Sequence record: OY720014
From: Escherichia phage vB_Eco_QOTSP
Length of the DNA: 64,000 nucleotides
Direction: 5' to 3' (one strand)
Shown: one piece after another, positions 39,176 through 48,815 of the stretch
Numbering within the stretch: position 1 is the stretch's first letter
Layout of the letters: the number at the start of each line of letters is the position of its first letter
Notes under the pieces: generated by a model
What the model was told of the DNA's origin: nothing
The model's database searches: none
What the model saw: only the letters and a program-made list of their open reading frames with translations
Translations under genes and position numbers: made by a program

Positions 39176-39703
39176 ATGAATGCTAAAGATATTTTCAACT
39201 TGGTAAACTACAATGATGGTAAATTTAAATCTGAAGCTCAAAGCAAGTTCTTTAATGACATCTCAATTGGAGGTGAAATCACGGTTGATGGAGGACAAAT
39301 TTACAAATCTCGTTGGAATTGGATCGTTATTATCGATGAGATTGGTATTGTAGAAATTTACAAAAATACGAATAAAAATCGTACATTACACTGGTCTCGT
39401 GATACTAACGAACAGTACAAAAAGGATAAAGCATCTAAATTATCTCGTGTAACTCAAGAAGATATTGAGTTCATCAAGAAAGATATTTTGATGTATGATA
39501 ACTTAATTGCTGAAGAGCAAGCTGTTATTGATAAATTTGACGAGATTAAAGCTTCTCGTGAAATTCCTGATTTTATGAAAGAATCAGTAAATGAACGATA
39601 CACTCTCATTTCAGAGCGTATTGAAACTTACAAAAAGCAAAGAGCTGAACGCCAGAATACTCTTCGGAAGTTTGAAGAACGGTTAAAGACGGTACTCGCA
39701 TAA
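39176..39703 (+). CDS. hypothetical protein
   Basis: ORF track 39116..39703 (TTG) trimmed to ATG 39176 after GGAGGAA; 175 aa. Confidence 0.6.
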   Translation: MNAKDIFNLVNYNDGKFKSEAQSKFFNDISIGGEITVDGGQIYKSRWNWIVIIDEIGIVEIYKNTNKNRTLHWSRDTNEQYKKDKASKLSRVTQEDIEFIKKDILMYDNLIAEEQAVIDKFDEIKASREIPDFMKESVNERYTLISERIETYKKQRAERQNTLRKFEERLKTVLA

Positions 39704-39758: not shown

Positions 39759-40166
39759 ATGAAACAGTTGATAATTAAAAGATTGAATTTATTGATATGT
39801 TGTTTATGTATAGTAATTGCATATGGTTATTACGCAATTAATGATTATATGCATTATAAAGATTATGATGTTACTGTAGTTAATACCCTTACAGGAACTC
39901 AAGGAAAGGGGTCTAGTTTATCGTTTATTGCCGTATATGAACTCAAAGACGGTTATAGATTTAGTGAATATATTTCCCCAGAGATGTATTCATCAATAGA
40001 AAAAGGCGATAATATTACTGTAAGTTTACGTCCTTTCGACGTAAAACAGACATTGTTTGATAATATTGTTTGGTTCTTTGGAATGGTATTAGTTCAATCT
40101 GTATGCGGTGCTTATATAGTCTTTTCCATCATATTCTGTGTATTTAGTAAAATTGAAATTGAGTGA
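39759..40166 (+). CDS. membrane protein
   Basis: 135 aa with hydrophobic segments at both ends. Confidence 0.6.
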   Translation: MKQLIIKRLNLLICCLCIVIAYGYYAINDYMHYKDYDVTVVNTLTGTQGKGSSLSFIAVYELKDGYRFSEYISPEMYSSIEKGDNITVSLRPFDVKQTLFDNIVWFFGMVLVQSVCGAYIVFSIIFCVFSKIEIE

Positions 40167-40173
40167 GGAAAAT

Positions 40174-41061
40174 ATGTCAGTAGTAATTAATAATGTCAAT
40201 ACAGTAATTAAATCTTTAGTTAATAAAAAAATGAATGAATGGACTGTACTTCGTCGTGGAGAGCCAGATAAATTTTTTCATAGATTTAACCCAACTTTGG
40301 ATTTGAATGTTATTGACAGAGATGTTCATGCAGAAATTTTAGATAAGTTTAAAGTTGATATTGGATTTGGATTAGAAAAACACTTACAGCGAACAAACGG
40401 GTCTGGAATGGGTTTATCTAATCGCATTATGAAAGCCCTTAATAAAATTGGAGCATTGTCTCGTATTAATGCAAGTGAAATTCTTCGCAATTATAATAAA
40501 GGCTATGATCTTTACGGTCGACTAATGCCGAAATTATCATTTGACCAAATGATCGCAGATTTGTGGGAAAATCAACGACGATTATTAGCATTAGGCGCTC
40601 GATTAGCTAAAGGTCTAGATAAACAAATGATTTTTAAGACCAATAATACAGAAGACCTTAAATGCTTTAAATTTAGTATTCGCGGCGATGATTATTACGT
40701 CAGAGCTCGCTCTACAGATTATGTTAATATGGGGCATCATCTCTGTTTAGCTTTTGAAGTTTTAAAAGAAGCCGGAACATTAGAATATGTGTCTGGTGCT
40801 AAATGCCCGATTGGTTCAAGTTGTATTTTAATTTATCGCCCGGATGAATCCAGTTTAACTAAATTGCCTACAAAACCTGTACCAGTTCGCAGTAATGAAA
40901 AACATTCTGAGCAAATTGATTATTTTAATAAGCAAATTGAAGAGCTGAATATTTCTATTCAACAGTATGACGATGAAATTTTCAGACTATCTGGATTGAG
41001 TAGTAAAGCTAAATCTGAGCGTGAAAAATTAATTAAAATTGTTGATTTACTTAAATCTTAA
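40174..41061 (+). CDS. hypothetical protein with C-terminal coiled coil (array member 1)
   Basis: ORF track 40138..41061 trimmed to ATG 40174 after GAGGAAAA; 295 aa. Confidence 0.6.
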   Translation: MSVVINNVNTVIKSLVNKKMNEWTVLRRGEPDKFFHRFNPTLDLNVIDRDVHAEILDKFKVDIGFGLEKHLQRTNGSGMGLSNRIMKALNKIGALSRINASEILRNYNKGYDLYGRLMPKLSFDQMIADLWENQRRLLALGARLAKGLDKQMIFKTNNTEDLKCFKFSIRGDDYYVRARSTDYVNMGHHLCLAFEVLKEAGTLEYVSGAKCPIGSSCILIYRPDESSLTKLPTKPVPVRSNEKHSEQIDYFNKQIEELNISIQQYDDEIFRLSGLSSKAKSEREKLIKIVDLLKS

Positions 41062-41069
41062 GGAACACC

Positions 41070-42089
41070 ATGAAAACTCGTTCTCAAATTGAAGATATGG
41101 TTCGTAATGCCAGCTATACCCGTAATGTTATGACATTTTTGTGCCAAAATAATTTAGACCCTGATAAAGTTAATCGTGATATTCACTTTAAGTATATGAA
41201 TAGCAGTGAATGGTTACGTCATTTTAGTAAAGCGGGATATATTACACAAATGACTGCTCGTGAGCAGCTCACCGATTTCTGTAAAACTATTGATTATAAA
41301 AATCCTCTATTTGTTCAAGGCGTTGGTCAGAGTAAGGTTGATTTATCAACAGGATTTTTTAATCCAAATCATTATCGTCTTGAATGGAGATTTATTGCTC
41401 TATTCCGTAAACAATTAAAGCAAATTTTGTCGACGGCTAGTCGATTAAAAGGTTCTGACATTAACTTAAAGAACCTGAAATTTGATGGTTATACTCTTCA
41501 GATGGAAGTAAGACCATTAAAAGAAAATAATAGAACTGCACGAATTAGCTTTAAACCTAATACAAAAAATTCTCTTTCAATTTGCGAATGCCTTAAATCG
41601 CAGTTGACAGAAGCATTTAAGTATATGGATGTTGTTGCCGCTGTTCATTCTAAGATTTTACCTCGTTTTGAGCGAAATTGGGAACATACAACAACATATG
41701 AACTTGATATGATCGTTTCATTTAAATACGATTTTTTGAGAAAGGATGAAGTCCCGCAAGAGAAAAAGCAAGAAGTGCAAGATAACTTAAATTTATCTAA
41801 TTACTCATCAAACGATCCTAAATTTTGGATGTATAGTTCAGGCAATAAAGATGCATGGAAATTCAATAAAGTGAATTTTCTTCCTATTGAAAATCCGAGT
41901 CTTAAACCTGTTGAAAAATGGCACGCGGATGCGATTGAGAAGTCTATCAAGGCAGTAGATGATGAACTCGTTAAAGCGACCAATGAAGTGCTAGAAGCTG
42001 AAAAGATGCTAGAAAAAGCTCAAGAAAAAGTCAAAAATCTCACGAAGCAACGTTCTAAACTGAACAACGCACTAAATGCACTGAACTAG
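41070..42089 (+). CDS. hypothetical protein with C-terminal coiled coil (array member 2)
   Basis: 339 aa; C-terminal ...EAEKMLEKAQEKVKNLTKQRSKLNNALNALN. Confidence 0.6.
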   Translation: MKTRSQIEDMVRNASYTRNVMTFLCQNNLDPDKVNRDIHFKYMNSSEWLRHFSKAGYITQMTAREQLTDFCKTIDYKNPLFVQGVGQSKVDLSTGFFNPNHYRLEWRFIALFRKQLKQILSTASRLKGSDINLKNLKFDGYTLQMEVRPLKENNRTARISFKPNTKNSLSICECLKSQLTEAFKYMDVVAAVHSKILPRFERNWEHTTTYELDMIVSFKYDFLRKDEVPQEKKQEVQDNLNLSNYSSNDPKFWMYSSGNKDAWKFNKVNFLPIENPSLKPVEKWHADAIEKSIKAVDDELVKATNEVLEAEKMLEKAQEKVKNLTKQRSKLNNALNALN

Positions 42090-42118
42090 TTTACTTCGCC
42101 ACAAGGATGTGGTATAAT
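42089..42118 (+). promoter_or_regulatory. early promoter (GTTTAC -35, extended TGgTATAAT -10)
   Basis: GTTTAC, 18-nt spacer, TATAAT with upstream TG. Confidence 0.7.
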
Positions 42119-42146
42119 GTTCTTACTTTCTACTGAGGAGATTAAT

Positions 42147-43148
42147 ATGACTCGTAACGAATATATCAAATCATTCAATAGCGTTATTGATGATAAAGTT
42201 ATACCGCTGTTTGGCCAAAATAGTGTTCTTTCTATTATCAATCAATGGCTCAATAATATTGATGCAAGTATTGTTTCTTCCGGCAAATTTATTCATGAAG
42301 TTCATGAAATTTCTAGTCGTACAAATAAAGATGCCATTAAGAAAACCTTTAAAGGATCTCGTCTTCTTTCATATTTGGTTAATCGGGATATTCTTGGTAA
42401 TTTTGGGAAAGAAATTAAACGAACCAAAGATGTAGTAGGATATAATTGGTTCGGTGATGTTAATTCTTATCATCTTAATATCAAAGAAGACCCTGAGAAT
42501 ATTTTTACTCGTCGTTGGATTAGTAATTTCAGACTTTTCAAAGGACAAATTCTAAAATCAGCTTCTAAATTATGTTATGGCGATTATCGTCAAATTCATC
42601 CTTTGGCTTCTGATATGATTATCGTAAAAGAATATGAGCTTGATAAAAATAAAGTAGCTATTTTTGTGAATTATGGATTTTTTACACCAGCAGCTAATCA
42701 AAAGAACATTAATAAATTTTTCTCAATTGCTAGCACTATAACTCATCAATTAGAGACGGCTTTGGGCTGTATGGAAACTGTAAAAAGTATTCATACATAT
42801 CCTTTCAAAAATATGTGTGGATGGGAAGGATATAAAATTATAATTAGTCTTCGTGAAGTAAAGTGTGCGTACTCACCGACTAATAAAGAAATTTACCAAC
42901 AAAAATGTGATGAAATTGTGAATACTCCTAAAGAAGAAACTACCCTTGAGGAACTAATGGAATGTCTTGATGATTCACCTGAACCGGTAGAAATTCGTCC
43001 AGAAGTTATTGCGCTAGAAAAAGCTTATAAAGAAGTTCTAGAAATTTCTAATAAAGCGCACAAAGAATATGAGCAGGCTAAAAAGATTTGGGAAGAATCC
43101 GTTAATCGTCTTGATCGTCTAGAACAAGCTTTACAGTTAATTAAGTAA
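42147..43148 (+). CDS. hypothetical protein with C-terminal coiled coil (array member 3)
   Basis: ORF track 42117..43148 trimmed to ATG 42147 after GAGGAG; 333 aa. Confidence 0.6.
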   Translation: MTRNEYIKSFNSVIDDKVIPLFGQNSVLSIINQWLNNIDASIVSSGKFIHEVHEISSRTNKDAIKKTFKGSRLLSYLVNRDILGNFGKEIKRTKDVVGYNWFGDVNSYHLNIKEDPENIFTRRWISNFRLFKGQILKSASKLCYGDYRQIHPLASDMIIVKEYELDKNKVAIFVNYGFFTPAANQKNINKFFSIASTITHQLETALGCMETVKSIHTYPFKNMCGWEGYKIIISLREVKCAYSPTNKEIYQQKCDEIVNTPKEETTLEELMECLDDSPEPVEIRPEVIALEKAYKEVLEISNKAHKEYEQAKKIWEESVNRLDRLEQALQLIK

Positions 43149-43202
43149 AATTTAAAGCCAAGGATGGCTCGGAGTATAAATCATTAACCAAGTGAGAAGA
43201 AC

Positions 43203-44129
43203 ATGAAAACTCGTAAACATTATATTGATTATTTTGACAGTCTTATTACTAAACATCGTGATTATCAGATAGGACACAGAGCAGTAATCAATAATATTCT
43301 TCGTGATTTTTTAGATTATACTGGACAGGAAAATCATATCTGTAAGGATACTCAGAATGCGTATTCACAATCTCTTGGTTCTTTACTTGAGTGGTTCAAG
43401 CGTTCTCGTGTGTTATCTTCTACTGTAGCTCGTGAGAACATTAAAAAATTTATGTATCCAAGCTACATTGAGACTAATGTATCAAATGCTAGTGTTGTTA
43501 CATTTAATATTATTAACGACGTGAAAAGAACTTATTTAGAAGAATGGTTTTCTAAAAATAGTAAAGAAAAATTTACTAGTGAGTTTTCACGCGAATTCAA
43601 TAATAACGTGAATATGCTTTTTAAGCATTCTCGTAGACTGTTTTGTCATGGCGATGATCGTACTATTAATGTGAATGTAAAAGACTGGGTTACGGCTAAA
43701 TTCATTCCATCATCCCAGAATAAATCATCTGAATTATCAGTTATTATCTGTGCTCCGCACGAGATATATAAAAATCTTCCGTATATGAAACCGCGTGAAG
43801 CTAATAAACACAATGAAACAATTCGTTCTTTGACTTATAATTTGCGTATGTTATTATCTAAAATGGATGTAGTTGAATCCTTTGATGATAATACAAATTA
43901 TGGTCTTTCGTTGTTTGAAACTAAAGTTGTTATTAAGTTAAAGGACCCTAGTGAATTTAAACCTACGTCAAAACCCAATCATGGGAATGATACTATGAAA
44001 GAAGAACGCGAATATCTCAATACTCGTTTGATTGAAGTTGAAGCCCAAATTGCAGAACACACCAAATTGTTAAAAGCTCTTAATGCAAAAGCAAATGGTT
44101 TACGTAATGCTATTGAGGTATTGAAATGA
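43203..44129 (+). CDS. hypothetical protein with C-terminal coiled coil (array member 4)
   Basis: 308 aa; C-terminal ...[31 protein letters not shown]. Confidence 0.6.
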   Translation: MKTRKHYIDYFDSLITKHRDYQIGHRAVINNILRDFLDYTGQENHICKDTQNAYSQSLGSLLEWFKRSRVLSSTVARENIKKFMYPSYIETNVSNASVVTFNIINDVKRTYLEEWFSKNSKEKFTSEFSREFNNNVNMLFKHSRRLFCHGDDRTINVNVKDWVTAKFIPSSQNKSSELSVIICAPHEIYKNLPYMKPREANKHNETIRSLTYNLRMLLSKMDVVESFDDNTNYGLSLFETKVVIKLKDPSEFKPTSKPNHGNDTMKEEREYLNTRLIEVEAQIAEHTKLLKALNAKANGLRNAIEVLK

Positions 44130-44515
44130 AAAAGCGTCTATTAGAAGATATTGCAGCTTCTAGTAATTCCAGTCTAATTAAAATTATTATGGCTGGTGAA
44201 GAAGACGATCTGGAAATGCGTGGAAAGATTCACGGCTGCGACGATTTAGATTTTAAACCTCCAGCATGGGATGCTATTATGGCTATGGTTGAACGACGTG
44301 AAAGAGCTTCTAAAAACGTTCCTAATTGCCCTGAATGCGGTACTGAACAAGTTCAATTGATTAACTGGCGTAAACCAGAGCTTGAATATAAATGCCGTCA
44401 TTGTAAACATAAATTTAATAAGCATGCTCCGGAAATGGTTAAATTGCCTGACTCTACTGAGTTCTTTAAAGAACTTGTGAGTGTTCAACCAATGCCTAAT
44501 AATATTTTGGATTAA
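44126..44515 (+). CDS. zinc-ribbon protein
   Basis: 129 aa; CPECG ... CRHCKHKF Cys4 zinc-ribbon arrangement. Confidence 0.6.
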
Positions 44516-44517
44516 AA

Positions 44518-44760
44518 ATGACCAAGCGTAAAGAATATATGGAGACTGCTAAAAAGGCAGTCCGTGAATTAGCAATAGCTTATTATAATGAACATGGTAA
44601 ATTTCCTGATAGATACAGCGTGCTTAAATCTGCTTTAACTCGTTCATATAAAAATATGCTATCAGAAGTAAGTGATATTATATACAAACATAAAGAACAA
44701 ACGGGCCAAAGTCTTGATTACGACGAGACTTTTAAACAAGTACTAGGAATTAAGGAATAA
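44518..44760 (+). CDS. hypothetical protein
   Basis: 80-aa ORF directly upstream of nrdC. Confidence 0.55.
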
Positions 44761-44761
44761 T

Positions 44762-45025
44762 ATGTTTAAAGTATATGGTTATGATAACAACATCCATAAA
44801 TGTGTGTATTGCGATAATGCAAAACGTCTTTTGACTGTGAAGAAACAGCCGTTTGAATTTATCAACATTATGCCGGAAAAAGGTGTTTTTGATGATGAGA
44901 AAATTGCTGAGCTTCTGACTAAACTGGGTCGTGATACTCAAATTGGCTTGACGATGCCTCAAGTATTTGCTCCTGATGGAAGTCATATTGGTGGATTTGA
45001 CCAATTGCGGGAATACTTTAAATGA
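44762..45025 (+). CDS. nrdC: phage thioredoxin/glutaredoxin NrdC
   Basis: 87 aa; MFKVYGYDNNIHKCVYCDNAKRLL with CVYC active site, recognised as T4 thioredoxin. Confidence 0.95.
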   Translation: MFKVYGYDNNIHKCVYCDNAKRLLTVKKQPFEFINIMPEKGVFDDEKIAELLTKLGRDTQIGLTMPQVFAPDGSHIGGFDQLREYFK

Positions 45026-45237
45026 TGCTCGAAGGAACTGACTATATTCATGATTACCGCGGAAGCGCGGTATATGTAGGTGATGAAGTTGCAGTTTATT
45101 ATGGGTATGGAACTTTGATGACAGCAAAGGTTATTCAAATTAAAAATAATCGTGCTAAACTTGAAGTTTATTATTCTAATGGTGAAAAGTCTATTTCTAA
45201 GTGGAAATACGGCGATTGTATGGTCAAACTGGGGTAA
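45022..45237 (+). CDS. hypothetical protein
   Basis: 71-aa ORF overlapping nrdC stop. Confidence 0.5.
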   Translation: MMLEGTDYIHDYRGSAVYVGDEVAVYYGYGTLMTAKVIQIKNNRAKLEVYYSNGEKSISKWKYGDCMVKLG

Positions 45238-45239
45238 AT

Positions 45240-45410
45240 ATGATTTACGATATTAATGTAGCAAAAGCTCCGTCAATGGTTACTATTCCTGCTGAAGAAC
45301 TAGATCGTCTTCATAAAATTGAAGAACTTCTTTGGGAAATTGAATCTGATTTGCCATCAGGATTAGAATCCTGGATTGATTATGAAGAACTTAATAAGCT
45401 TCGGGGTTAA
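45240..45410 (+). CDS. small acidic protein (56 aa)
   Basis: ORF track 45201..45410 trimmed to ATG 45240. Confidence 0.45.
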   Translation: MIYDINVAKAPSMVTIPAEELDRLHKIEELLWEIESDLPSGLESWIDYEELNKLRG

Positions 45411-46060: not shown

Positions 46061-46534
46061 ATGTTATTGACTGGCAAATTATATAAAGAAGAAAAACAAA
46101 AATTTTATGATGCACAAAACGGTAAATGCTTAATTTGCCAACGAGAACTAAATCCTGATGTTCAAGCTAATCACCTCGATCATGACCATGAATTAAATGG
46201 ACCAAAAGCAGGAAAGGTACGTGGATTGCTTTGTAATCTCTGCAATGCTGCAGAAGGTCAAATGAAACATAAATTTAATCGCTCTGGTTTAAAGGGACAA
46301 GGCGTTGATTATCTTGAATGGTTAGAAAATTTACTTACTTATTTAAAATCCGATTACACCCAAAATAATATTCACCCTAACTTTGTTGGAGATAAATCAA
46401 AGGAATTTTCTCGTTTAGGAAAAGAGGAAATGATGGCCGAGATGCTTCAAAGAGGATTTGAATATAATGAATCTGACACCAAAACACAGTTAATAGCTTC
46501 ATTTAAGAAGCAGCTTAGAAAGAGTTTAAAATGA
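46061..46534 (+). CDS. 49: endonuclease VII (Holliday junction resolvase) gp49
   Basis: 157 aa; CxxC ... HLDHDHELNG ... CNLCN motifs; T4 gp49 size. Confidence 0.92.
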   Translation: MLLTGKLYKEEKQKFYDAQNGKCLICQRELNPDVQANHLDHDHELNGPKAGKVRGLLCNLCNAAEGQMKHKFNRSGLKGQGVDYLEWLENLLTYLKSDYTQNNIHPNFVGDKSKEFSRLGKEEMMAEMLQRGFEYNESDTKTQLIASFKKQLRKSLK

Positions 46535-48348
46535 CAATTGAAAAAGAAATTGAAGGATTGATTCATAAAACTAATAAAGACCTTTTAAACGAGAATGCTA
46601 ATAAAGATTCTCGTGTTTTTCCAACTCAACGGGACCTTATGGCTGGTATTGTGTCTAAACACATTGCCAAAAATATGGTCCCGTCTTTTATTATGAAAGC
46701 GCATGAAAGCGGAATTATCCATTTCCATGATATTGATTATTCCCCTGCTCTTCCATTTACTAATTGCTGTTTAGTAGATTTAAAAGGAATGCTTGAGAAC
46801 GGATTTAAGCTTGGTAATGCGCAGATTGAAACTCCTAAATCAATCGGTGTTGCTACTGCAATTATGGCACAAATTACTGCGCAAGTTGCTTCCCATCAAT
46901 ACGGCGGAACGACTTTTGCTAATGTAGATAAAGTACTTTCTCCTTATGTTAAACGCACCTATGCAAAACATATTGAGGATGCAGAAAAATGGCAAATCGC
47001 TGATGCGTTGAATTATGCTCAATCTAAAACAGAAAAAGACGTATACGATGCATTCCAAGCTTATGAATATGAAGTAAATACTCTCTTTAGTTCAAACGGG
47101 CAAACACCTTTTGTAACAATTACATTTGGTACGGGAACTGACTGGACTGAACGAATGATTCAGAAAGCAATTCTGAAAAATCGTATTAAAGGTCTCGGTC
47201 GTGATGGGATAACTCCTATTTTTCCTAAGCTTGTTATGTTCGTCGAAGAAGGCGTTAATCTTTACAAAGACGATCCGAGCTATGATATTAAGCTGCTTGC
47301 TCTAGAGTGTGCAAGCAAAAGGATGTATCCTGATATTATTTCAGCTAAGAACAATAAAGCTATTACTGGTTCATCTGTTCCTGTTTCTCCAATGGGTTGC
47401 CGTAGTTTCTTGAGCGTATGGAAAGATTCGACTGGTAATGAAATTCTTGATGGACGTAATAATCTTGGTGTTGTAACACTGAATCTTCCTCGTATTGCAT
47501 TAGATTCTTATATTGGAACACAGTTCAATGAACAGAAATTTGTTGAATTGTTCAATGAACGAATGGATTTGTGTTTTGAAGCTTTGATGTGTAGAATTAG
47601 TTCCTTAAAAGGAGTTAAAGCGACTGTTGCTCCTATTCTTTACCAAGAAGGTGCATTTGGGGTTCGTCTTAAACCTGATGACGACATAATTGAGTTATTT
47701 AAAAACGGTAGAAGTTCAGTGTCTTTAGGATACATTGGTATTCACGAATTGAATATTCTTGTCGGTCGTGATATTGGACAAGAAATTTTAACTAAAATGA
47801 ATGCCCATCTTAAACAGTGGACTGAAAGAACCGGATTTGCTTTTAGTTTATATTCGACTCCTGCTGAAAACCTTTGTTATCGCTTCTGTAAACTTGATAC
47901 AGAAAAATATGGAAGTGTAAAAGATGTTACCGATAAAGGCTGGTACACTAACAGTTTCCATGTTTCAGTAGAAGAAAATATTACTCCGTTTGAAAAGATT
48001 TCTCGTGAAGCGCCATATCATTTCATTGCGACAGGTGGTCACATTTCTTATGTTGAACTTCCTGATATGAAAAATAACCTAAAAGGTCTTGAGGCTGTAT
48101 GGGATTATGCTGCACAACATTTAGATTATTTTGGTGTTAACATGCCGGTAGATAAATGTTTTACATGCGGAAGTACCCATGAAATGACTCCTACTGAAAA
48201 CGGATTTGTTTGTTCTATTTGTGGAGAAACTGATCCTAAAAAGATGAACACAATAAGAAGAACATGTGGTTATTTGGGAAATCCGAACGAACGCGGATTT
48301 AATCTCGGTAAAAATAAAGAAATCATGCATAGGGTTAAACACCAATGA
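46531..48348 (+). CDS. nrdD: anaerobic ribonucleoside-triphosphate reductase NrdD (uninterrupted)
   Basis: 605-aa continuous ORF; C-terminal glycyl-radical motif RRTCGYLG and zinc-ribbon CxxC pairs. Confidence 0.95.
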   Translation: MTIEKEIEGLIHKTNKDLLNENANKDSRVFPTQRDLMAGIVSKHIAKNMVPSFIMKAHESGIIHFHDIDYSPALPFTNCCLVDLKGMLENGFKLGNAQIETPKSIGVATAIMAQITAQVASHQYGGTTFANVDKVLSPYVKRTYAKHIEDAEKWQIADALNYAQSKTEKDVYDAFQAYEYEVNTLFSSNGQTPFVTITFGTGTDWTERMIQKAILKNRIKGLGRDGITPIFPKLVMFVEEGVNLYKDDPSYDIKLLALECASKRMYPDIISAKNNKAITGSSVPVSPMGCRSFLSVWKDSTGNEILDGRNNLGVVTLNLPRIALDSYIGTQFNEQKFVELFNERMDLCFEALMCRISSLKGVKATVAPILYQEGAFGVRLKPDDDIIELFKNGRSSVSLGYIGIHELNILVGRDIGQEILTKMNAHLKQWTERTGFAFSLYSTPAENLCYRFCKLDTEKYGSVKDVTDKGWYTNSFHVSVEENITPFEKISREAPYHFIATGGHISYVELPDMKNNLKGLEAVWDYAAQHLDYFGVNMPVDKCFTCGSTHEMTPTENGFVCSICGETDPKKMNTIRRTCGYLGNPNERGFNLGKNKEIMHRVKHQ

Positions 48349-48815
48349 ATTATGATAGATTTTATCCTTGCGATTTTGTGAATGGCCCTGGTTGCAGGGT
48401 CGTTCTTTTCGTTACAGGTTGTTTGCATAAATGCGAAGGGTGTTATAATAAATCAACATGGAATGCTAGAAATGGTATTCCATTCACTGGTGAAACACTA
48501 GAACAATTAATTGAATGTTTGAATAATGATTATATAGAAGGATTAACTATAACTGGAGGAGACCCTCTCTATCCTGATAATCGAGATGTTATTCATTGCA
48601 TTGTTCAAACAGTAAAAAATCTTTATCCCAATAAAAGCATTTGGTTGTGGACAGGATATAAATTTGAAGATATTAAACAACTAGAAATGCTTAAATATGT
48701 TGATGTTATTATTGATGGGAAGTATGATAAAAATCTTCCGACCAAAAAGCTGTGGAGAGGATCAGATAATCAGCGGCTTTGGTCAAATACCGATGGGGTG
48801 TGGAAACATGATTAA
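48345..48815 (+). CDS. nrdG: anaerobic RNR activating protein NrdG (radical SAM)
   Basis: 156 aa; CLHKCEGC radical-SAM cysteine motif. Confidence 0.92.
   Translation: MNYDRFYPCDFVNGPGCRVVLFVTGCLHKCEGCYNKSTWNARNGIPFTGETLEQLIECLNNDYIEGLTITGGDPLYPDNRDVIHCIVQTVKNLYPNKSIWLWTGYKFEDIKQLEMLKYVDVIIDGKYDKNLPTKKLWRGSDNQRLWSNTDGVWKHD

Follow-up and report, generated by a model that had tools for sequence, protein, structure and literature searches.

Four consecutive genes of Escherichia phage vB_Eco_QOTSP, the orthologues of T4 nrdC.6, nrdC.5, nrdC.4 and nrdC.3, are diverged tandem paralogues of a single superfamily that extends across the Straboviridae. We analysed them in a window of 64,000 nucleotides from this phage (record OY720014), which has a Tequatrovirus (T4-like) genome lying here in the orientation opposite to that of the standard T4 map. 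In each of the four proteins a small helical bundle at the N-terminus is followed by an alpha/beta sandwich, a disordered linker that contains proline and an amphipathic heptad helix of 42–56 residues. One of them, NrdC.5, is known from T4 to overcome a host defence, and we propose below that the array is a set of related defence inhibitors.

The four open reading frames (ORFs) were assigned by position and identity and have the same order as in T4: nrdC.6 (40174–41061, 295 amino acids, with a helical N-domain, an alpha/beta body, a short linker and the tail), nrdC.5 (41070–42089, 339 amino acids), nrdC.4 (42147–43148, 333 amino acids) and nrdC.3 (43203–44129, 308 amino acids; the closest paralogue of nrdC.4). 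All lie on the + strand, and the minus strand opposite the array holds short ORFs only. An earlier sequence-only reading of the window had picked out four adjacent genes of exactly these lengths and had quoted their tail sequences correctly. It had also remarked that three of the proteins begin MKTR or MTRN, as they do (MKTRSQ in NrdC.5, MTRNEY in NrdC.4 and MKTRKH in NrdC.3; NrdC.6 begins MSVVIN). The program-made ORF list starts earlier for nrdC.6 (GTG at 40138) and for nrdC.4 (ATG at 42117). We prefer the start codons of the sequence-only reading, because the family alignments start at MSVVIN and MTRNEY, a Shine–Dalgarno sequence stands before each, and upstream of nrdC.4 a site on the + strand at 42090–42118 (TTTACT, a 17 nt spacer and TG-TATAAT) resembles a T4-type early promoter, as judged by consensus match only.

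NrdC.5 is 92% identical to its T4 counterpart, and over residues 1–259 NrdC.6 shares 97% identity with T4 NrdC.6. Pfam and PHROGs place the four proteins in three families. NrdC.6 belongs to phrog_2257 (E 2.2e-152), with PF26899 assigned to all 105 of its relatives. NrdC.5 matches PF23882 (DUF7235) over its full length (E 4.8e-126; 420.8 bits against a cut-off of 30; residues 1–339 on profile positions 1–307) and is also assigned to phrog_2351. A third family, phrog_1435, is matched by both NrdC.4 (E 1.8e-166) and NrdC.3 (E 1e-100), and PF26897 is precomputed on database relatives 95–100% identical to these two proteins. The 4.2-kb region of the array is 94–97% identical in DNA to Tequatrovirus genomes from Escherichia, Shigella and Yersinia; it matches 508 database records, 461 of which contain at least 80% of it.

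The central regions of the four proteins had been described as different. This stands at the level of BLASTP, by which only NrdC.4 and NrdC.3 match each other (E 1e-6), and fails at the level of profiles and folds, by which the bodies are homologous. Alignment of profiles with hhalign linked nrdC.4 and nrdC.3 with a probability of 98.4%, and nrdC.5 to the merged nrdC.4/nrdC.3 profile with a probability of 95.75% (E 8.4e-9) over 151 columns of the central body, outside the tail. When column-shuffled profiles were used as a control for the latter alignment they scored 11–22, compared with the 64 observed, and a comparison restricted to the bodies of the nrdC.5 and nrdC.4 families gave P 7e-5. 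Tail-only profile comparisons among the four families were not significant (P 0.003–0.15, barely above reversed-sequence controls). The detectable homology of nrdC.5 to nrdC.4 and nrdC.3 thus sits where the sequence-only reading had seen differences. That reading had envisaged diversified N-terminal domains joined to a shared oligomerization tail; the divergence of the family is real, but the homology extends over the whole length, with a stronger direct signal from the bodies than from the tails, which argues for divergence of entire proteins rather than the shuffling of domains onto a common tail.

The families are joined by a fourth, phrog_26858, which comprises single-copy genes of 315–335 amino acids at the same locus in Klebsiella Marfavirus and Enterobacter Kanagawavirus. 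It matches nrdC.4/nrdC.3 over 274 columns (95.9%, E 6.2e-9), nrdC.6 over 175 columns running from the body motif through into the tail (85.7%, E 5.4e-6), and the tail of nrdC.5 (93.7%, E 1.9e-7). Homology of the tails is demonstrable only through this bridging family. Plain HMMER searches against PHROG models reproduce the links between phrog_26858 and the nrdC families. A shared body motif is visible by eye in all of them: NQRRLLALGARLAKGLDKQMIFKT in nrdC.6, NWRMILTLGSRLCVGSSRELEFKT in the bridging family, RKQLKQILSTASRLKGSDIN in nrdC.5, LFKGQILKSASKLCYGDYRQ in nrdC.4 and VNMLFKHSRRLFCHGDDRT in nrdC.3.

Predicted structures agree with these links. The AlphaFold2 models of nrdC.6 and nrdC.4 have their elements in the same order: N-terminal helices, two helix pairs, a beta-hairpin, a helix, a second beta-hairpin, linker and tail. 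In a Foldseek search of BFVD the nrdC.4 model matched the model of NrdC.6 from phage JS10 (E 6e-5), and the nrdC.6 and nrdC.4 models share seven distant targets of 304–346 amino acids (E 1e-8 to 1e-3), which come from phages of Enterobacter, Pectobacterium, Acinetobacter, Yersinia and Serratia. The suggestion that the array is an old tandem family is therefore upheld by the hhalign matches, the bridge to nrdC.6 and the Foldseek cross-matches, and there is detectable homology among the four beyond a generic coiled-coil composition. NrdC.8 was considered as a fifth member and rejected, as it has no profile similarity to the four.

The C-terminal heptad-like segments had been recognized from the sequence, and they are coiled-coil-like to a degree far from chance. 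Each of the tails follows one unbroken heptad register over its last 42–56 residues, is nearly free of proline and glycine, and has hydrophobic residues at 80–94% of a/d positions, compared with 18–30% at other positions. Shuffled tails equalled the observed periodicity in 0, 0, 7 and 64 of 5000 trials for the four tails. This test uses a single register and replaced an earlier sliding-window heptad score that separated poorly. In C-terminal heptad contrast the four proteins rank 1, 2, 3 and 5 among the 65 ORFs of at least 120 amino acids in the window. The orthologue of NrdC.8, encoded two genes upstream (39176–39703; 175 amino acids, 99% identical to T4), also has a heptad-like C-terminal helix and ranks fourth of the 65.

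The tails, all encoded on the + strand, differ in detail. That of NrdC.6 (residues 242–295, 40897–41058) is coiled-coil-like in its heptads and contains the invariant motifs DDEIFRL and LLK. The NrdC.5 tail (residues 284–339, 41919–42086) has about eight heptads, with a hydrophobic fraction of 0.94 at a/d positions and none of its 5000 shuffles as periodic. In NrdC.4 (residues 285–333, 42999–43145) the tail is a single 48-residue helix in the AlphaFold2 model, and the heptads of NrdC.3 occupy residues 267–308 (44001–44126). The tail is entered through P-x-x-PVE and ends in a motif (Q/E)R-x-K-L-x-x-A-(I/L)-x-x-L-K. In the AlphaFold2 models, which are of monomers, a low-confidence linker is followed by helices 242–271 and 276–294 in nrdC.6 (predicted local distance difference test score, pLDDT, 77.8) and by helix 285–332 in nrdC.4 (pLDDT 84).

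Copy number across the Straboviridae ranges from one to four. Tequatrovirus has four copies; Gaprivervirus VR26 has three, of the nrdC.6, nrdC.5 and nrdC.4 types; Mosigvirus moskry also has three, of the nrdC.6, nrdC.5 and nrdC.3 types; and Marfavirus and Kanagawavirus have one each. In Acinetobacter phage Acj61, which belongs to another subfamily, two adjacent genes, p120 and p121, lie between nrdC and nrdC.10. Both are BFVD matches of the nrdC.4 model, one of the two was also found with the nrdC.6 model, and their heptad tails end LNKALEIM and LAKALVV; they are tied to the family by fold and position only, with no sequence link. Acj61p118 and the 256–257-amino-acid genes of Marfa and IME523 were likewise considered and were rejected as members. 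An HMMER search of 1.84 billion representative proteins with the nrdC.4/nrdC.3 profile returned 11 proteins only and, as far as sequence can tell, the family appears to be confined to relatives of the T-even phages.

In each family, conservation is highest in the tail. Between distant orthologues, the identities of tail and body are 0.65 and 0.38, 0.62 and 0.37, 0.62 and 0.45, and, for nrdC.3, 0.90 and 0.60; in nrdC.5 and nrdC.3 the linker shows the lowest conservation. Judged by the ratio of substitution rates, the bodies have a rate of evolution 3–8 times that of neighbouring genes. The ratio of non-synonymous to synonymous substitution rates (dN/dS) relative to T4 is 0.22 for nrdC.5, 0.22 for nrdC.4, 0.20 for nrdC.3 and 0.08 for nrdC.6, compared with 0 to 0.08 for the neighbouring genes nrdC.11, nrdC.10, nrdC.9, nrdC.8, nrdC.1, nrdC, pin, 49 and nrdH; nrdC.7 (0.35), nrdC.2 (0.14) and nrdG (0.21) are exceptions among the neighbours.

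The body of nrdC.3 behaves as a cassette that is swapped between conserved flanks. In comparison with phage OE5505, DNA identity is 88–100% over the first three genes and 82–94% in the nrdC.3 tail, and falls to 54–74% over the hypervariable body cassette at 43350–43950 (+ strand). The nrdC.3 alleles form classes of about 89, 64 and 57% amino acid identity; the 89% and 64% classes both occur within Tequatrovirus, and the sampled 57% alleles include one from a Mosigvirus. Rearrangements are also seen. A deletion that removed nrdC.4 has fused residues 145–271 of nrdC.5 to residues 134–308 of nrdC.3 in a protein (P0161) found on three contigs of up to 167 kb, and in Shigella phage Sf25 gp220 (P0001, 378 amino acids) carries an internal tandem duplication of 83 residues, equivalent to NrdC.6 residues 176–258.

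A function has been published for one of the four genes. A T4 deletion clone cannot plate on E. coli ECOR17 and regains plating when the host dsr1 gene is deleted; cloned dsr1 protects MG1655 from the same clone, and nrdC.5 alone, expressed from a plasmid, restores plating (PMC9391042). In that work nrdC.5 was treated as a single uncharacterized early gene, and no mechanism, paralogues or domain architecture were given (PMC9391042; Srikant, Guegler and Laub, eLife 2022); we found no later literature on its anti-Dsr1 mechanism. Dsr1 is a SIR2 NADase with a bent sensor domain that is homologous to the Avs7 sensor and has the phage major capsid protein as its trigger (PMC13581612).

The surroundings of the array are rich in inhibitors of defence. 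nrdC.1 inhibits Septu (2025 preprint), bas37_0203, which by size and position is the nrdC.8 orthologue, inhibits Druantia III, and T6 gp49.2 inhibits the OLD defence nuclease (PMC13096335). With nrdC.1 and other inhibitors as neighbours, the four genes sit inside a dense anti-defence island. By transposon mapping, nrdC.3 to nrdC.6 and their Bas37 orthologues are non-essential (bioRxiv 10.1101/2025.11.20.689424). The array thus has the features of accessory genes: it is non-essential, has an early-type promoter and inhibitor neighbours, and varies in copy number and alleles. The sequence-only reading had called the pattern typical of host-interaction or anti-defence families. For nrdC.5, whose T4 protein overcomes Dsr1, and for the neighbourhood this was apt; nrdC.3, nrdC.4 and nrdC.6 are candidates only.

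We favour, with moderate confidence, the view that the paralogues of this array are anti-defence binders, early and non-enzymatic, whose targets differ, a view that takes in the action of NrdC.5, the role of its tail and the retargeting of its paralogues. NrdC.5, made early, would act stoichiometrically by binding Dsr1, most likely at the bent, Avs7-type sensor domain that recognizes the late major capsid protein. It would bind before that protein appears and so prevent the triggering of Dsr1, in analogy to the action of DSAD1 on DSR2. The tail would make NrdC.5 a dimer or a higher oligomer, providing avidity or a geometric match. After duplication, the tails would have diverged so that paralogues avoid cross-association, and would then have been conserved within each lineage. 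nrdC.3, nrdC.4 and nrdC.6 would be the same device, with bodies retargeted to other defence sensors or to variants of the Dsr1/Avs7 sensor. Such retargeting would explain the fast evolution of the bodies, the exchange of the nrdC.3 cassette and the changes in copy number between genera.

Several observations weigh against this view or against the kinship on which it builds. The direct match between nrdC.6 and nrdC.4/nrdC.3 is weak and depends on the alignment, with a probability of 48% from large local alignments and 2.5% otherwise, and one of 20 column shuffles scored 33, compared with the 37.6 observed. We therefore place nrdC.6 in the superfamily through the bridging family and the predicted structures, whose fold matches have modest TM-scores of 0.3–0.5. 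Because of these modest scores we regard nrdC.5, nrdC.4 and nrdC.3 as almost certainly of common ancestry, and nrdC.6 as probably sharing it. All dN/dS values are well below 1 and nrdC.6 evolves slowly, so that we speak of faster evolution and not of demonstrated positive selection. In the HIDEN-SEQ comparisons considered here, which are part of that data set, nrdC.3 to nrdC.6 showed no significant depletion of insertions. Oligomerization through the tail is predicted from heptad periodicity alone, and the NrdC.6 tail is modelled as a kinked hairpin that possibly packs on the body. An anti-defence function has been demonstrated for one of the four only, and for the T4 allele of NrdC.5 (92% identical to the allele here). 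Direct binding to Dsr1, the role of the tail and the anti-defence role of nrdC.3, nrdC.4 and nrdC.6 are what we infer, and it is possible that NrdC.5 acts indirectly or as an enzyme.

Of the other explanations, the one that survives best, while still unlikely, is that the proteins serve host takeover, the conserved tail binding one partner of host or phage origin common to them all and the bodies modulating that partner, with the effect of NrdC.5 on Dsr1 being indirect. Three of the members have no known phenotype, and the conservation of the tail in each family includes surface positions (DDE of DDEIFRL), which is more than a zipper needs. However, a plasmid supplying NrdC.5 alone was sufficient for the T4 deletion clone to plate again on MG1655 with cloned dsr1, the locus is crowded with genes that inhibit defence directly, and the tails differ strongly between paralogues, which is a better fit to orthogonal self-association than to one shared partner.

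We consider it slightly less likely again that the proteins are decoys, in which the alpha/beta body is an exapted fold of the tail-terminator type (gpU or SPP1 gp17-like) that mimics a virion protein early and thereby occupies defence sensors. The resemblance of the body to the tail-terminator fold is borderline in its scores: alpha/beta sandwiches unrelated to it score equally well, and PDB clusters contain a disproportionate share of tail terminators. The four proteins have no match to a tail family in Pfam or PHROG and no sequence similarity to tail terminators (lambda gpU, SPP1 gp17-like, DUF3168); the likeness is that of a common two-layer sandwich. Unlike tail terminators, moreover, they are early and non-essential, are three times larger, and have additional helical and coiled-coil parts.

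An enzymatic role in NAD+ or ADP-ribose metabolism, offsetting the depletion of NAD+ as NARP pathways do, appears improbable. In its favour, the target known so far, Dsr1, is itself an NADase, DSR1 is indeed countered by pathways that reconstitute NAD+, and NrdC.6 has strongly conserved body motifs such as YNKGYDLYGR and NQRRLLALGARLAxGxDKQMxFKTN. However, no enzyme-family match to any of the four proteins was found in Pfam, NCBIfam or PDB sequences, whether to a kinase, transferase, NMNAT-type or other enzyme domain, and the PDB sequence search returned no entry related to any of the four families. The residues conserved across families are few and form no recognizable catalytic set, and metabolic enzymes do not typically evolve so fast in their bodies or exchange them as cassettes. 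That these are four unrelated proteins with nothing but coiled-coil composition at the C-terminus in common, as the lone BLASTP link, the non-significant tail profiles and the three separate Pfam and PHROG families might suggest, is very improbable and largely refuted by the body profile matches, the bridging family, the common order of secondary structure, the Foldseek cross-matches and the same syntenic slot across subfamilies.

The favoured reading, of an array of anti-defence binders, can be extended to an expandable repertoire across the Straboviridae, in which a single modular inhibitor scaffold is multiplied into paralogues and body cassettes, each tuned to a different pattern-recognition sensor and possibly derived as a decoy from a virion protein. 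The scaffold would comprise the helical bundle, a tail-terminator-like sandwich, the linker and an orthogonal coiled-coil tail, and its targets might be, for example, the many proteins with Avs7/Dsr1 sensors. We regard this extension as speculative, and rather doubtful as a whole; if true, the array would be the phage counterpart of a diversified family of receptor antagonists.

The array consists of known T4 ORFs, one with a published anti-defence role, and is therefore not a new kind of system. T4 NrdC.5 occupies the same position as the gene here, which matches DUF7235 over its full length, and the other three genes are its paralogues. The closest functional analogue is DSAD1, the anti-DSR2 protein of SPbeta-like phages, which likewise silences a defence-associated sirtuin; by published accounts it binds the sensor region of DSR2 in competition with the virion-protein trigger. 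It acts on a different defence protein, in a different phage group, and is not known as a tandem paralogue array. Another T-even locus likewise retains a short conserved module, with the remainder exchanged for anti-defence bodies that are highly diverged or unrelated. There the module is a capsid-targeting signal at the N-terminus of injected proteins, whereas in the nrdC array the module is a C-terminal coiled coil, the genes are expressed early and the bodies are still homologous. Finally, phrog_26858, which occurs in relatives of Marfavirus and Kanagawavirus as well, has the same length and tail motif, lies between nrdC and nrdC.10/nrdC.11, profile-matches all three families and is single copy; it probably resembles the unduplicated ancestral state.

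As far as we could find, the paralogy, the Straboviridae-wide superfamily, the contrast in conservation between tail and body and the nrdC.3 cassette have not been described. The superfamily unites three Pfam/PHROG families with a fourth that is single-copy, and makes concrete defence-inhibitor candidates of nrdC.3, nrdC.4 and nrdC.6, three orphan genes of T4, the phage studied best of all. It suggests that specificity is determined by the variable body, for which the nrdC.3 cassette offers a natural experiment, and that the tail is a testable oligomerization module. It should also aid the annotation of hundreds of T-even genomes that are therapeutic candidates and in which these genes are now mislabelled 'thioredoxin'.

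Several existing annotations of the locus are misleading. Hundreds of records label nrdC.1 to nrdC.10 as 'thioredoxin', a name evidently taken from the gene-name prefix. The T6 record AP018814.1 carries shifted product names (tail sheath, baseplate wedge and others) on small early genes, and we rejected its label 'tail sheath stabilizer and completion protein' on nrdC.5 as an artefact of this record-wide frame-shift of product names. In the T4 reference (NC_000866.4, 11990–12900, minus strand) nrdC.6 shifts frame right after ...NKQIEEL. The annotated T4 NrdC.6 is consequently a protein of 275 amino acids that lacks the conserved tail, which is intact in another frame; re-annotated T4 gives nrdC.6 as an 891-nt gene. 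The frame change reflects either an error in the reference sequence or a mutation peculiar to the strain.

The 54-nt spacer between nrdC.4 and nrdC.3 contains a short GC-containing hairpin at 43155–43172 (GCCAAGGATGGC), which has a terminator-like score on the minus strand only. Directly after nrdC.3 there is a local mosaic junction, within an nrdC.2-like ORF (44126–44515) of 129 amino acids, compared with 104 in T4. The 3' part of this ORF (about 44400–44550) has about 35% DNA identity to T4 and OE5505, and 96% to T6. nrdC.1 follows at 44518–44760 and is 98.8% identical to T4 NrdC.1. T4 genes 49.2 and 49.3 have no counterpart here, and their slot (45022–45237 and 45240–45410) holds T6-type small ORFs, the second of which shares more than 90% identity with the T6 ORF in the place of gp49.2 and matches phrog_3402 ('antitoxin'). 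Further on, in the region 46531–48812, nrdD is an uninterrupted ORF of 605 amino acids, without the group I intron or I-TevII. nrdG stands directly after nrdD, without mobC; its protein is 80% identical to that of T4 (synonymous substitution rate, dS, 0.85), compared with 98–100% for the flanking genes.

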